Origin: Candidatus Gottesmanbacteria bacterium
Lineage (GTDB): Bacteria; Patescibacteriota; Microgenomatia; UBA10105; UBA927
Assembly: GCA_030679255.1 (NCBI GenBank)
Contig: JAUXTO010000042.1
Location: 110,714 to 158,781 of the forward strand
Direction: 5' to 3'
DNA: 48,068 nt
Positions 448 through 21,729 of this stretch are shown piece by piece; within the stretch, counting starts at the first letter, position 1, and every line of letters starts with the position of its first letter. The position numbers were made by a program, and so were the translations under genes. The notes beneath the pieces are model-generated. The model saw only the letters and a list, made by a program, of their open reading frames with translations, was not told where the DNA came from and searched no databases.

Positions 448-502
448 GGGGAGACGAGAAGTTTATCCTGAGCGAAGTCGAAGGAAGTCTCCCATCGGCA
501 CC
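448..502 (+). repeat. REP-like element followed by a duplicated tRNA-Leu 3' end
   Basis: GAGAAGTTTATCCTGAGCGAAGTCGAAGGA, then AGTCTCCCATCGGCACC (486-502), which copies tRNA 428-444 with one C missing. Confidence 0.75.
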
Positions 503-4358: not shown

Positions 4359-4364
4359 CTCTAG

Positions 4365-4680
4365 CGCTCCCAGAGGGAATCCCTGCCCGCTAGCGCCTGA
4401 GCCTAGCTCTGGCAGGCGGGGAACCTTCATTTCCTCTTTACCTGCCCGCCGCGCCATTAATAAAAAAGTACGGCTGTATGCGCTCCCGGTGGGAATCGAA
4501 CCCACAACCTACTCTTTAGAAGAGAGTTGCTCTGTCCATTGAGCTACGGGAGCCTATCGGTAATTATACAACGGGTTAAGATTTTCTGCGCGCTTTGGCA
4601 GGCGGGGAAGAGAGGTGCCCCGCCTGCTACACCTCCAGCGTAGCTCTGGCGGGCAGGTCTATCCGTTGAGCTATGGGAGC
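4365..4680 (-). pseudogene. Interrupted outer tRNA-Arg(TCT) with three palindromic insertions, one containing an intact tRNA-Arg(TCT)
   Basis: Joining 4680-4658, 4618-4607, 4440-4421 and 4381-4365 gives GCTCCCA TAGCTCAACGGATAGAGCA CCTCT CTTCTAA AGAGG AAAT GAAGG TTCGATT CCCTC TGGGAGC G, a full cloverleaf. Confidence 0.85.
4481..4553 (-). tRNA. tRNA-Arg(TCT), nested
   Basis: Acceptor GCTCCCG/CGGGAGC, anticodon arm ACTCT-CTTCTAA-AGAGT. Confidence 0.95.
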
Positions 4681-5882: not shown

Positions 5883-5977
5883 GGTGATCCCCGCCTGCAA
5901 CGCCTGAGTTTTGCGATGGCGGGCAGGGTAGCATCGTCCATAGGACGACTAGCCTATGGCTAGCAATGGTAGTGCAC
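5883..5977 (+). pseudogene. Duplicated tRNA-His 5' segment interrupted by two palindromic elements
   Basis: GGTGATC[38 nt]GTAGCA[30 nt]CAATGGTAGTGCAC rejoins to the exact first 27 nt of tRNA-His (6292-6318). Confidence 0.85.
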
Positions 5978-5989
5978 TAATTTGAAAAA

Positions 5990-6253
5990 ATGTATTATCT
6001 TTATTTTTTAAAGAGTTTAAAAAATCAAGAAGTATATGTAGGAAGTACCTCTAAACACCCGGAGGTGCGACTACTTGAACACAATAACGGTTCCAATAAG
6101 TGGACTAGACAAAATAGACCGTTAAAGTTAGTCTATTTTGAAAAATATCACTGCAATAAAGATGCAAAGTCTAGAGAATTATTTTATAAATCAGGGGTAG
6201 GAAAAGTTGTAAAAAATATAATAATTGAAGCCTTTGAAAAGATTTCTAAATAA
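5990..6253 (+). CDS. Small GIY-YIG nuclease family protein
   Basis: YYLYFL…YVGST…RLLEHNNG…T…RPLKLVYFE…A..RE…KSG.G. Confidence 0.9.
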   Translation: MYYLYFLKSLKNQEVYVGSTSKHPEVRLLEHNNGSNKWTRQNRPLKLVYFEKYHCNKDAKSRELFYKSGVGKVVKNIIIEAFEKISK

Positions 6254-6257
6254 TATA

Positions 6258-6287
6258 TCGTCCATAGGACGACTAGCCTTTGGCTAG
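6258..6287. repeat. 30-nt double-hairpin repeat (second copy at 5934-5963)
   Basis: TCGTCCATAGGACGA-CTAGCCT(T/A)TGGCTAG occurs as a direct repeat on both sides of the GIY-YIG gene. Confidence 0.85.
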
Positions 6288-6291
6288 CATT

Positions 6292-6364
6292 GGTGATCGT
6301 AGCACAATGGTAGTGCACCAGCTTGTGGAGCTGGGCGTTGCGGGTTCGAATCCCGTCGGTCACC
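6292..6364 (+). tRNA. tRNA-His(GTG)
   Basis: G-1, acceptor GTGATCG/CGGTCAC, C73, anticodon arm CCAGC-TTGTGGA-GCTGG. Confidence 0.95.
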
Positions 6365-6400
6365 CATTCGACAGGCTCAGGGTTTACGACCCAAGACAGT

Positions 6401-6673
6401 ATGGAGTGGTACGTGTATATTCTTCTTTGCGATGAGAAAACTTTTTATGTGGGATTAACCTCTAATTTAAAAGAAAGACTGCATTCTCATAATTCTAAAT
6501 ATAATATCGGTACGAAAAAGTTTTCTCATATTGAGTTGGTCTATTCTGAAAAACATCCCGATCGGAAATCTGCTGAATATCGTGAAAAACAACTCAAACG
6601 CTGGACACACGCAAAGAAGAAAGCATTAGTTGAAGGAAATATCGAATTATTGAAACAACTGAGTAAATCCTGA
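6401..6673 (+). CDS. GIY-YIG nuclease family protein (UPF0213/YhbQ-like)
   Basis: WYVYILLC…FYVGLT.NL.ERL..HN…LVYSE…A..REKQLKRW…KK.AL; flanked by the inverted repeat CATTCGACAGGCTCAGG / CCTGAGCGTGTTGAATG. Confidence 0.9.
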   Translation: MEWYVYILLCDEKTFYVGLTSNLKERLHSHNSKYNIGTKKFSHIELVYSEKHPDRKSAEYREKQLKRWTHAKKKALVEGNIELLKQLSKS

Positions 6674-6716
6674 GCGTGTTGAATGATCGACGGTTAATGG
6701 TGAGCAAAGTCGAACC

Positions 6717-6734
6717 ATCCCGTCGGTCACCCCA
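6717..6734 (+). repeat. tRNA-His 3'-end copy 1
   Basis: ATCCCGTCGGTCACCCCA. Confidence 0.9.
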
Positions 6735-6854
6735 AGAGCTAAGTCGTTAGAGAATTCCAACTTTAAAGTAATATATTTGATTCAAAGCTATATTAAGATC
6801 CTAGCGTGGTTAGCTATTTCATATCAGGTAAGTATGATTTAAAATCAACTTATC

Positions 6855-7760
6855 ATGGTTATTAGCTCGGTATCCGAAGAAAATATATTTTACGAATTGC
6901 TTGATAATACTAAAGATAATATCAAATACGCTTTTGAAAATAATTGGCCATATATTCTACAAGCCACGCGAAATGGATATATGACATATGGCGATACAGA
7001 AACAAAAGTGTATTATACTAAACGATTTCCTAACGTAGAAAGATCGCCTATTGTGATAGTAAATGCACTAGGGAGATACCCTAGAGAATGCATAAGTAAA
7101 CTTGCACTGAATAATCATAAAAATAACATTAATACAATTGTAAAAAACGTTCCTTCTAATAATTTGCAGTGGTGGCTGGAAAATAATTTTACCGAAACAA
7201 CGACACCCTGGAGTCATTATTCGATAAAGGATGATAATACTTTCCCACAATATATTGTTCTTAACGAGACAATACTGCTCAAAGGTTTTAAAGAAGATGT
7301 AAAGTATCAAATCAATCGTTTTCAAAAAAGACCAATCTCTACAATTCAATATTCAGAAAATTATAACAAAGAAGCAATGCGTCTACTTGATGATTTCTCG
7401 ATTTATTCTCAAAATAAAGGAAATGATTATGCTAATGAAGTTAAAAATGGACATTTATTTTTTTTTGATAATTTAATTCAAAAAAGAATCAGGTTTGCAC
7501 ATATTGAAAACGATAGATTAATAGGTTTTTCATTTTTAACTCCTGTGAATAATATAATTTTTTATAATGCTGTTATATGCCAATACGAAAGAAACATTAT
7601 GAAATATTTGGTGTACCAAAGTTTAAAGTTACTAGCAGAGAGAAATATATACAAGTATTTTTGTATGCAGGGTTCAGAAAATGAGGGACAAGACTATTTA
7701 AAAAAACGACTTGGTGCATCAATAGTAATTCAGAAAACACACTTGACTTATTCCCCGTAG
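6855..7760 (+). CDS. AT-rich hypothetical protein, possibly GNAT-fold (DUF2156/FemAB-like)
   Basis: 301-aa ORF. RLIGFSFL and the C-terminal YFCMQGSENEGQDYLKKRLG resemble aminoacyl-transferase GNAT C-termini (weak). Confidence 0.55.
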   Translation: MVISSVSEENIFYELLDNTKDNIKYAFENNWPYILQATRNGYMTYGDTETKVYYTKRFPNVERSPIVIVNALGRYPRECISKLALNNHKNNINTIVKNVPSNNLQWWLENNFTETTTPWSHYSIKDDNTFPQYIVLNETILLKGFKEDVKYQINRFQKRPISTIQYSENYNKEAMRLLDDFSIYSQNKGNDYANEVKNGHLFFFDNLIQKRIRFAHIENDRLIGFSFLTPVNNIIFYNAVICQYERNIMKYLVYQSLKLLAERNIYKYFCMQGSENEGQDYLKKRLGASIVIQKTHLTYSP

Positions 7761-7995
7761 TCATCAATGAGATTATTTAACTACTTTAGGTGCCAGCAGG
7801 TGTAGTCTCTAAAACATTTAGCGATTTATACACAACACTCAACAATACAGCCTCTCTAGAATTCTCCATGAAATACCTTGCTAGGTTGGCATATAGTCCC
7901 GTTGGGGACCCACAGTTCGACAAGCTCACTGTTCAAGTGAGTTTGGCGGAGTGTGAGCGATGGGATGAGAAGTTTATACTGAGCTTGCCGAAGTA

Positions 7996-8014
7996 AATCC
8001 CGTCGGTCACCCCA
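7996..8014 (+). repeat. tRNA-His 3'-end copy 2
   Basis: AATCCCGTCGGTCACCCCA, preceded by the REP-like GAGAAGTTTATACTGAGCTTGCCGAAGTA. Confidence 0.9.
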
Positions 8015-8084
8015 ACCTTTTTAGCTTCAAGTAACTTAATCAAACTATTCTAATCCAAAACTGGACTTGAACTACTTGTCAAAA

Positions 8085-8624
8085 TTAAACAAGTTCTTCC
8101 TTCCGCAACTCCATGATATAAGTGGGATCAGGCTCATTATGAATTTGTACTGTTTTTACATATTTAAACCCTGCTTTTTTGTATGCCTTAATTGCTCTGG
8201 TGTTATTTGGTTCCGGGCCAATGATGCAGGTATTTATACTATTATTTGCAAAAACAATTTTTTTAAGAAACTTTTTTATCATCTTATTTCCTAATTCTCG
8301 ACCCATAAATGAAGTGTCCCCTATAAATAAATCTATACTTGCAGTGTTGTCATCATACCCTACATGGTTTCCAAACTCGGGCCAATCATTCACTTTATAT
8401 GTTTGCATATAGGCAACTGGTTTTTTACCATATAAAACTATATAACAATCCGTTGGTTTTTCTCCTTTTATTTTCGGAGCATAACGTTTAGTAATTGCTT
8501 CCAGTGTATTTTCTTTGTCTTTGTCATACCATTCATGCACATGAGGTTCATTAAGCCATTTATGCATGAGGTCTAAACCGGCTAGTTGGAGTCTTTCAAA
8601 AGAAATAAATTTCGGATTAAGCAT
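8085..8624 (-). CDS. GNAT acetyltransferase, AAC(6')/Acetyltransf_8-like
   Basis: WLNEPHV.EWY, AYMQTY, IDLFIGD….GRELG, PEPNN.RAIKAYKKAGF. Confidence 0.85.
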   Translation of the reverse strand: MLNPKFISFERLQLAGLDLMHKWLNEPHVHEWYDKDKENTLEAITKRYAPKIKGEKPTDCYIVLYGKKPVAYMQTYKVNDWPEFGNHVGYDDNTASIDLFIGDTSFMGRELGNKMIKKFLKKIVFANNSINTCIIGPEPNNTRAIKAYKKAGFKYVKTVQIHNEPDPTYIMELRKEELV

Positions 8625-8795
8625 GTGTATATTGTATCATTTGGGGACTATAAAATCGCAAATGCGGATCTTAAAAATACCAACTTTCGTTGGTTTCAAT
8701 GAACTATTTATAGTAAGTCCTTACATCGTTCGATAGTCTACCCACAGAACGATGGGGTGAGAAGTTTACCCTGAGCGAGTCATCGAGTCGAATGG

Positions 8796-8815
8796 GAATC
8801 CCGTCGGTCACCCCA
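8796..8815 (+). repeat. tRNA-His 3'-end copy 3
   Basis: GAATCCCGTCGGTCACCCCA, preceded by the REP-like GAGAAGTTTACCCTGAGCGAGTCATCGAGTCGAATGGG. Confidence 0.9.
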
Positions 8816-21413: not shown

Positions 21414-21429
21414 GCAATTTTTCCGTTTG

Positions 21430-21677
21430 AGCCCAGAGAAGGAATTGTCATGCGAAGCGTGATTTGGCTTCGCCAGAAACCCACGACCGAGTTCTTACCG
21501 CGCTCGCCGCGCCTACCTTGAGCCCAGAGAGGGAATTGAACCCTCGACCTCTTTCTTACCAAGAAAGCGTTCTGCCGCTGAACTATCTGGGCGCTATGGC
21601 GGGCGAGCCAAGAACTCGCTCCCCGCCTGCAACGCTTAGCCTAGCATTGCGGGCAGGTACCACTGAGCCATTCGGGC
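21430..21677 (-). pseudogene. Interrupted outer tRNA-Thr(GGT) with three insertions, one containing an intact tRNA-Thr(GGT)
   Basis: Pieces 21677-21658, 21621-21608, 21497-21478 and 21447-21430 join to GCCCGAA TGGCTCAGTGGTAGAGCG AGTTC TTGGTAA GAACT CGGTC GTGGG TTCAATT CCTTC TCTGGGC T. Confidence 0.8.
21521..21592 (-). tRNA. tRNA-Thr(GGT), nested
   Basis: Acceptor GCCCAGA/TCTGGGC, anticodon arm CTTTC-TTGGTAA-GAAAG. Confidence 0.95.
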
Positions 21678-21729
21678 GCAATAAAGACAATTGTATCATG
21701 GATAAATAATTGTATGAAGTACAAAAAAC

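Follow-up and report, generated by a model that had tools for sequence, protein, structure and literature searches.

The 48,068-nt stretch of Candidatus Gottesmanbacteria DNA analysed here (the window; contig C29:110714-158781 of the source genome, G000) carries a tRNA-His gene surrounded by short repeated units. Over 5883-8815, a single tRNA gene has received insertions at either side, and on balance we judge it somewhat probable that miniature mobile elements directed at tRNA gene ends have built up an accretion array here. The anatomy of the array, the mobility of its units, the match of their ends to the target, the element-borne distal tRNA copy and the association with small GIY-YIG nuclease genes were observed directly. 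The source genome comprises 1.45 Mb in 44 contigs, is 95% complete and has 47 tRNA genes; DNA of the window was recovered in groundwater metagenome runs. Downstream of the intact tRNA-His gene lie, in this order, a GIY-YIG unit, a unit with a 301-aa open reading frame (ORF) together with a miniature unit, a GNAT unit and the flank (Table 1). The guanine-plus-cytosine (GC) fraction is 0.27-0.39 over 6001-8800, compared with 0.45-0.51 in the flanks. Below, genomes are designated by G numbers, contigs of G000 by C, loci by L and metagenome runs by X.

Three low-GC units of the array are each closed by the same 18-mer, ATCCCGTCGGTCACCCCA, which is identical in copies 1 to 3 (Table 1) and occurs with two mismatches at the true 3' end of tRNA-His (6350-6367). 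These four matches compare with 0.04 expected, and none of 100 shuffled sequences gave four. A preliminary description of the window, made from its letters alone, had reported this recurrence and the three single-gene units that it delimits, and both were recovered exactly. It had also stated, correctly, that the copies read C73-CCA and that the live gene does not encode a full CCA; the latter reads CACCC-A, and an array-free congener (G003) natively encodes CACCCCA. The CCA of the copies is explained by insertion of the units after C74, which leaves CACCC followed by the A of the unit in the live gene while the copies retain CACCC-CA. A reverse-transcription origin of the CCA-bearing copies was considered and is unlikely, since insertion after C74 suffices and no match to RVT_1 (reverse transcriptase) was found in the 95% complete genome. 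The flank gene beside copy 3 is homologous in G001, G009 and G020, and copy 3 is probably the original 3' end of the tRNA gene.

The GIY-YIG unit directly behind the tRNA gene (type A) has terminal inverted repeats, TTCGACAGGCTCAGGG and GGTGAGCAAAGTCGAA, and the same ends were found in L010-L015 and L041-L051. Ends and ORF together were present behind tRNA-His (L010-L012, L040 and L051), tRNA-Asn (L014, L015, L042 and L045) and tRNA-Gln (L041, L047 and L049), each unit being closed by a 16-nt copy of positions ~59-74 of the tRNA concerned. These 16 nt were first read as a target-site duplication, which was rejected. In L042, the proximal copy starts with GTCTTCTC and the distal copy with GTCCTCTC, the tRNA reading GTCTTCTCGGGGGAGC where the distal copy reads GTCCTCTCGGGGGAGC; L044 has the same distal copy as L042 next to a different proximal sequence. 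Proximal and distal copies differ by one base of the T-stem part in L047 and L065, and the left flanks of L046, L048 and L050, where there is no tRNA, share only the last 7-11 nt. Because of these differences, the distal copy is assigned to the element. Exchange with the target involves only the acceptor 3' strand, the discriminator and C74. In L012 (JAKAHA010000010.1), the left end, followed by five ~24-nt tandem repeats (ATCAATTTCAGGGTTTACTACCC), lies ~130 nt upstream of the GIY-YIG ORF.

The right end of the units is a hairpin module. Its 5' strand varies, its loop is conserved (GAGAAGTTTAYMCTGAGC-variable-(G)TCGAAGGRA) and its 3' strand is the tRNA copy; stem and 3' tail together copy positions ~59-74 of the cognate tRNA. 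Inverted copies of the stem, which the preliminary description had placed ahead of the repeats, are present as CGACGG (6688-6693), CGATGGGAT (7958-7966) and CGATGGGGT (8750-8758), and what it had called a TGAGC...CGAA element resembling repetitive extragenic palindromes (REPs) is a genuine conserved module, the stem of which co-varies with the tRNA. The loop motif had 24 matches in 14 of the 87 genomes of the order. Over 17 distinct instances, the two strands paired at 7.6 of 9 positions (run 6.5), compared with 5.8 of 9 (run 3.2) with swapped partners, and the stems tracked His, Asp, Leu(cag), Leu(taa), Lys, Gln, Tyr and Ser-like 3' ends. Folded as single-stranded DNA and compared with 200 shuffled sequences, the hairpin of copy 1 had a z-score of -2.1 (9/200 shuffles as good) and that of copy 2 a z-score of -4.3 (1/200). 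The hairpin, likened to a T-arm in the preliminary description, is not a faithful one: the stem also pairs T-loop positions 59-60 and acceptor positions 66-67, and is therefore an inverted repeat of the copy.

The co-orientation of GIY-YIG units and modules with the tRNA could also mean that the modules are mainly RNA devices, that is, mimics of the tRNA top half for RNase P, RNase Z or the CCA-adding enzyme, at which co-transcribed cassette RNAs would be cut and capped, and which would spread only via ordinary recombination. Pairing of TGATCGACGG with CCGTCGGTCA in copy 1 (acceptor 5' strand followed by a T-stem-like strand), the G-T pairs of the stem, which would be G-U in RNA, and the CCA that ends the window copies fit such a role. 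However, the T-loop positions 59-60 paired by the stems are unpaired in tRNA, the mimic of the acceptor 5' strand is missing from most modules, and Rfam at E<=1 gave no tRNA-like or other family at the modules, returning only tRNAs and weak chance matches over positions 1-24000 of the window. It also leaves the 93-97% identity across diverged genomes and the empty sites described below unexplained, and we consider it very unlikely.

The preliminary description had proposed a comparison of the array among relatives; content and order differed, the opposite of an invariant locus. In G001, a genome of the same genus, the GIY-YIG unit is 96.7% identical to that of the window over 389 nt and the GNAT unit 93.2% identical over 833 nt; homology begins and ends at the repeats, and the flanking genes are only 64-76% identical. 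In G023, from another genus, the GIY-YIG unit is 89.5% identical (the alignment includes the tRNA), with coding flanks at 71-76%. In G001, tRNA-His is followed by a miniature unit of 84 nt, one unit that holds a 211-aa ORF, the GNAT unit, the GIY-YIG unit and the flank. Yet another order was seen in run X11, one contig of which has a miniature unit and then the GIY-YIG unit behind tRNA-His. This tRNA-His 3' end was found in 25 of the 87 order genomes, six of which have at least two tandem copies (four in G000 and in G001, three in G009, two each in G023, G051 and G058). Empty sites were found in G002 and G004, the latter forming with G051, of the same genus, a clean filled/empty pair. Judged from these comparisons, the units are mobile. 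That they are eroded remnants of larger integrase-bearing islands once present at tRNA-His, a case raised in the preliminary description, is the weakest of the alternatives and in our view extremely unlikely. Repeats of a tRNA 3' end are the classic scar of islands, and the region is low in GC; nevertheless, units of the same small sizes with exact ends recur in several genomes, behind at least eight different tRNAs and with matching stems, and erosion would not yield a 90-nt or a 350-nt unit repeatedly.

Small GIY-YIG genes are associated with tRNA genes outside this array as well. Four of the eight small GIY-YIG ORFs in G000 lie within 150 nt of a tRNA gene, which was not matched in any of 20000 random placements. 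An intact tRNA was present at <=300 nt from the GIY-YIG ORF in 9/21 genome loci and 10/20 metagenome loci (protein-fetched), and all tRNAs found in these loci lie on the strand of the ORF. The 90-aa protein consists of the GIY-YIG catalytic core plus ~20 residues, and is of the UPF0213/YhbQ type (PDB 1ywl, EF2693, E 8e-6; 1zg2, BH0048, E 2e-4). Its YVG motif, R26, H30 and E62 are invariant in four sequences; TIGR01453 matched residues 5-39 only and scored 16 bits (cut-off 56). Among 17 GIY-YIG proteins placed in a tree, the His clade stands apart from the Asn/Gln clade (support 94/93) and seven Asn-linked proteins group together (88/92). GIY-YIG is the only gene kept with the ends across the His, Asn and Gln lineages, down to ~50% protein identity. 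Of the earlier suggestion that small GIY-YIG proteins might serve the platform, the part that stands is that the gene travels with the repeats across tRNAs and lineages; as for its role, the nuclease probably drives the array.

The other units of the array carry cargo genes or no gene at all. The 301-aa protein had no Pfam or NCBIfam match; its structure in the Atlas aligns to clusters of PF09924 / LPG_synthase_C with template-modelling scores of 0.79-0.83, and the protein is predicted to have the LPG_synthase_C fold (MprF C-terminal, tandem GNAT). When the other 86 genomes of the order were searched, DNA matching this ORF and the upstream part of its unit was found in none; only the last ~100 nt, which include the terminal hairpin, recurred, in different surroundings in G052. 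The segment 7895-7911 (AGTCCCGTTGGGGACCC) was considered as a foreign tRNA-His donor allele, and this was dropped: in 400 other genomes of the class it had no exact match, one-mismatch matches in 10 genomes were about as frequent as with a reversed-pattern control, and a near-identical hairpin occurs in those different surroundings in G052. It is probably a plain terminal hairpin. NCBIfam placed the GNAT protein closest to AAC(6') models, but its 90 bits fall far short of their cut-off of 280, so that it appears distantly AAC(6')-like; among the order genomes searched, its unit was found elsewhere in G001 only.

Two units without ORF are miniature inverted-repeat transposable elements (MITEs), one complete and one a remnant. 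The complete one folds better than its shuffled versions (z -5.1, 0/200 as good), and homologous ~90-nt MITEs were found at tRNA-His in G058 and G001, tRNA-Lys in G064, tRNA-Asp in G029 and tRNA-Gln(ctg) in G065. Both MITEs of the window hold the inverted stem copy given above, CGATGGGAT in the complete MITE and CGATGGGGT in the remnant that closes the GNAT unit, the latter being, from its sequence, the same miniature form with an internal deletion. In G000, the motif TTCGAC-NNN-GCTCAGGGTAAAC was also observed away from tRNAs (C17:51728, C17:53613, C39:9026, C39:11125 and C38:10501), where it sits inside other hairpins (with stems such as AAGGCCACCCCTTG / CAAGGGAGTGGCCTT) and in a minimal 45-nt palindrome. 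Palindromes of the TTCGACAAGCTCAGG type may be widespread in other phyla, where they would give spurious FDKLR-like peptides.

On the 5' side of the same tRNA gene, a second GIY-YIG unit (type B, 5883-6291) mirrors type A and lies inside the 5' side of tRNA-His. Neither this unit nor the module behind tRNA-Leu(cag) figured in the preliminary description. A promoter-like TACGGTATACT, native to the tRNA, stands immediately upstream of a 5' fragment of the gene (5883), and this fragment is broken by a 38-nt hairpin of the GGCGGGCAGG type (5890-5927) and two small ones (5934-5948 and 5949-5963). The small hairpins recur at the right border within direct repeat D2 (5933-5970 / 6257-6294, 95% identical). 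The product of the enclosed ORF no. 1 is 33% identical to that of ORF no. 2. The G002 sequence aligned to the window up to 5887, which is the start of its own tRNA-His; type B is therefore read as having inserted within the gene and supplied a new 5' part in place of the old. This layout was also present at tRNA-Val (L052, L054 and L056), tRNA-Asn (L027) and a His-like gene (L057-L059).

We propose the following course of events. A type A element would insert directly 3' of C74 of the cognate tRNA gene, its far end bringing its own copy of tRNA positions ~59-74, preceded by the inverted copy of these and the ~30-nt conserved loop. Because the element would carry this copy, the tRNA would stay intact, and each insertion would make a new, equivalent target downstream. 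Units would be stacked and shuffled, and cargo genes trapped, as further insertions hit any of the copies and as copies recombined with each other; the cargo here is the LPG_synthase_C-fold gene and the AAC(6')-like GNAT gene. The autonomous-looking member would be the 350-nt unit, the sole gene of which encodes the 90-aa UPF0213/YhbQ-type nuclease, is co-oriented with the tRNA and is probably expressed by read-through from it; the ~90-nt forms would be non-autonomous derivatives of this unit. The type B unit would have entered the 5' side of the same tRNA-His, carrying a replacement 5' part. We suppose that the GIY-YIG protein breaks either the target or the hairpin, that the insertion is then completed by repair or recombination of the host, and that cargo moves by exchange within the copies. 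Tentatively, and with more doubt than attaches to the accretion array as such, the elements may form a new class, defined by a structure-specific GIY-YIG nuclease of 90 aa and by a 'programmable' end made of a conserved loop and a target-copying stem. If so, and this is equally tentative, a change of stem and tail would retarget the element, and regeneration of the target would provide small-genome bacteria with a recombinase-free, integron-like capture platform.

Several observations weigh against an accretion array driven by the nuclease. Stems are poor in 2 of the 17 module instances (L047, 4/9; L077, 5/9, run 2), and the hairpin of copy 3 is no better than shuffled sequences (z -1.0, 29/200), its minimum-energy fold pairing differently. 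The cargo units have no left inverted end, and they may move only through homologous exchange between arrays and not independently. The metagenome comparison covered four runs, as contigs only, and X2 and X4 repeat the order of G001 and are not independent of it. No recognisable DNA-binding domain was found in the 90-aa protein by Pfam or NCBIfam, unlike characterised homing endonucleases. Inner support in the GIY-YIG tree is weak (1 of 14 branches starred), with two long branches. In many bacteria, UPF0213 proteins are encoded by ordinary genes in single copy as well. Finally, a search of the genome for tyrosine recombinases, serine recombinases, Y1 transposases and reverse transcriptases found five tyrosine recombinases (PF00589), three large serine recombinases and nine Y1 (HUH) matches, any of which could act in trans. 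The earlier statement that there is no integrase thus holds for the window, in which no tyrosine, serine or Y1 recombinase matched, but not for the genome; contig C29 as a whole had no PF00589 match.

With such enzymes in the genome, the units could be miniature att-flanked elements, akin to cis-mobilisable elements (CIMEs), that are moved by a tyrosine or large serine integrase encoded elsewhere, GIY-YIG being a selfish passenger. The enzyme would have to recognise the acceptor 3' strand of tRNA-His. An element-borne distal copy and an exchange within the last 7-11 nt are the outcome of attP x attB recombination at a tRNA 3' end, inverted arms flank the copy in the joined form, and of the five tyrosine and three large serine recombinases, three in all lie ~1 kb from tRNA genes, namely tRNA-Met (C23), tRNA-Lys(ttt) and tRNA-Thr(cgt) (C29). 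Nonetheless, GIY-YIG alone was kept with the ends across the His, Asn and Gln lineages, the window is without integrase, and the ORFs listed for the array stretches of G001 and G009 (without Pfam scan) include none that is integrase-sized or so named. Classically, moreover, the element supplies the proximal tRNA end and that of the host moves to the distal side, whereas here it is the distal copy that is conserved and of element type (L042 and L044). We consider movement by such an integrase, and the specificity that it demands, unlikely. The serine recombinase genes near tRNA-Lys(ttt) and tRNA-Thr(cgt) (C29:52755-53192 and C29:521-958) probably belong to classical integrated elements.

The Y1 matches permit another scheme, in which the modules would be single-strand substrates like REPs or palindrome-associated transposable elements (PATEs), mobilised by HUH transposases of the RAYT (REP-associated tyrosine transposase) or IS200-IS605 kind; the inverted copy would guide them to the target and GIY-YIG would be cargo. 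Nine Y1_Tnp matches are present in the genome, several of them to 220-266-aa proteins flanked by small palindromes, and the units insert 3' of a short specific sequence with hairpin ends and without true target duplication. The target-matching inverted segment also resembles the guide-directed targeting that IS608 reportedly uses. Against this, the palindromes that flank the Y1 genes are of the AAGGCCnGGCCTT type, unlike the module; conservation lies in the module's loop and variation in its stem, opposite to REPs; none of the arrays examined has an adjoining Y1 gene; and the unit ends are mutual inverted repeats, unlike those of IS200/IS605. Such mobilisation appears distinctly unlikely, more so than transposition by an integrase in trans. 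The RAYT-type genes were located at C25:3617, C25:49002, C17:37895, C40:64085 and C36:20144, each between small palindromes of the AAGGCCnGGCCTT kind, and one of them has an in-frame TAG.

Table 1. Position and strand of the features discussed, in window coordinates
Feature	Position	Strand	Remarks
Hairpin module behind tRNA-Leu(cag) (357-444)	449-502	+	stem GGGAGAC/GTCTCCC and tail ATCGGCACC correspond to this tRNA
5' fragment of tRNA-His (positions -1 to ~26)	5883-5977	+	broken by three hairpins; repeats D2, D6
GIY-YIG ORF no. 1, 87 aa (type B unit)	5990-6253	+	PF01541, 57.6 bits
Second copy of the two small hairpins	6257-6291	+	type B right border, abuts intact tRNA
tRNA-His(gtg), intact	6292-6365	+	ARAGORN and Rfam (64.9 bits) at 6293-6365; G-1 at 6292
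GIY-YIG type A unit	6366-6716	+	350 nt; inverted ends (TTCGRC-NNN-GCTCA)
Left inverted end TTCGACAGGCTCAGGG	6367-6382	+	starts right after CACCC (C74) as A-TTCGACAGGCTCAGGG
GIY-YIG ORF no. 2, 90 aa	6401-6673	+	PF01541, 65.7 bits
Inner repeat CTGAGCGTGTTGAA	6670-6683	+	after the ORF in type A unit
Inverted copy TGATCGACGG	6684-6693	+	complementary to tRNA copy 1 that follows
Right inverted end GGTGAGCAAAGTCGAA	6699-6714	+	inverted partner of TTCGACAGGCTCAGGG; then CC and tRNA copy
Copy 1 of tRNA-His 3' end (positions ~59-76)	6717-6734	+	exact 18-mer match
Cargo unit with 301-aa ORF	6735-7911	+	ORF 6855-7760; terminal GTCCC..GGGAC hairpin 7896-7910
ORF-less miniature element (MITE)	7912-7996	+	left inverted end TTCGACAAGCTCAC 7916-7929; loop module 7967-7996
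Copy 2 of tRNA-His 3' end	7997-8014	+	exact 18-mer match
GNAT cargo unit	8015-8739	-	179-aa GNAT ORF 8085-8624; Acetyltransf_8, 94.6 bits
MITE remnant closing GNAT unit	8740-8797	+	ACCCACAG 8740-8747; loop module 8759-8797; repeat D4
Copy 3 of tRNA-His 3' end	8798-8815	+	abuts native downstream flank

Partial tRNA duplicates are frequent in G000. A second tRNA-His(gtg) gene (C40:12734-12805, L008) has an unusual T-loop without TTCGA; the array-bearing gene is therefore not the sole tRNA-His gene of the genome. The first 23 kb of the window (1-23100) hold 19 of the 47 tRNA genes, interleaved with small, low-GC accessory genes, among them a 103-aa ORF with a methylguanine-methyltransferase DNA-binding domain, a DUF192 gene, a low-molecular-weight phosphatase and a glyoxalase. 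tRNA-Arg(tct) (4480-4553, minus strand; region 4364-4680) is accompanied by a 5' fragment (4680-4657) and a 3' fragment (4381-4364) of its own, both joined to hairpins of the CCTGCCCGCC/GGCGGGCAGG type, and these fragments look like a second family of miniature elements that enter tRNA genes. Upstream of tRNA-Thr(ggt) (21520-21592, minus strand; region 21429-21680) there are a 5' fragment and a GGCGGG hairpin, and the 3' end of the gene is repeated ~75 nt downstream, after an insert of a further type that has no GAGAAG module. tRNA-Pro(ggg) (C38:243461-243739) stands between a 5' fragment and a 3' fragment resembling tRNA-Pro(tgg).

To our knowledge, genomic islands, for which tRNA genes are the classic landing pads, always arrive there through an integrase. 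In the array described here, landing and stacking are seen with units down to 90 nt, and the sole recurrent gene encodes a minimal GIY-YIG nuclease. If this nuclease drives the process, it would give a role to the widespread and functionally obscure UPF0213/YhbQ family, explain the small GIY-YIG genes that adjoin tRNA genes, and provide a simple, possibly re-targetable way of inserting DNA at a safe site with the gene left unharmed. The array also illustrates how accessory genes are still exchanged among Patescibacteria, whose genomes are reduced; the examples here are genes for an AAC(6')-like acetyltransferase and a transferase like the C-terminal part of MprF. In CC-licensed articles of PMC and in bioRxiv (subscription journals and supplements being outside this scope), no published account was found of either small GIY-YIG genes or miniature elements located at the 3' ends of tRNAs.

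Like tRNA-targeting islands, prophages and CIMEs, the units insert at the 3' end, keep the gene intact with a carried copy, are bordered by direct repeats and accrete in tandem. They differ in size (90 nt to 1.3 kb, not kilobases), in that there is no integrase in the units or in the 48-kb window, in that the conserved, element-type copy is the distal one, in that they carry a hairpin module with a stem that co-varies with the target, and in that the only constant gene is that of a 90-aa GIY-YIG protein.

Free-standing GIY-YIG homing genes offer a second comparison. Seg proteins have more than 200 aa and DNA-binding domains, whereas the protein studied here has 90 aa and is of the UPF0213/YhbQ type, and its element adds inverted ends, a target copy and ORF-less derivatives. 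Phage T4 SegB is described as a free-standing GIY-YIG homing endonuclease gene in the tRNA gene cluster (PMC2330249). Like such genes, those described here lie beside or between tRNAs, occur sporadically and are far better conserved than their flanks; what is visible of homing is only its footprint, namely empty and filled sites and identity above that of the flanks.

The miniature units share with MITEs, REP-RAYT systems and PATEs that they are palindromic, non-coding derivatives mobilised in trans and located next to a short specific sequence. However, the modules have no linked DDE or Y1 gene (families searched: tyrosine, serine, Y1 and reverse transcriptase), their distal tRNA copy is a part of the element and not a target-site duplication, and the targeting is tRNA-specific.

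The preliminary description had drawn a parallel with integrons. That parallel stands in so far as single-gene cassettes form a modular array at one locus, an imperfect palindrome with a shared core at its end closes each of them, their content and order vary between relatives, and they include AAC(6')-like cargo but no recombinase gene. It does not extend to a strict integron: IntI and attI are lacking, the core is specific to the tRNA instead of being GTTRRRY, and the GNAT cassette points the other way. Nor was a Pc promoter identified in the array, and the array modules combine a conserved loop with a variable stem, the reverse of attC.

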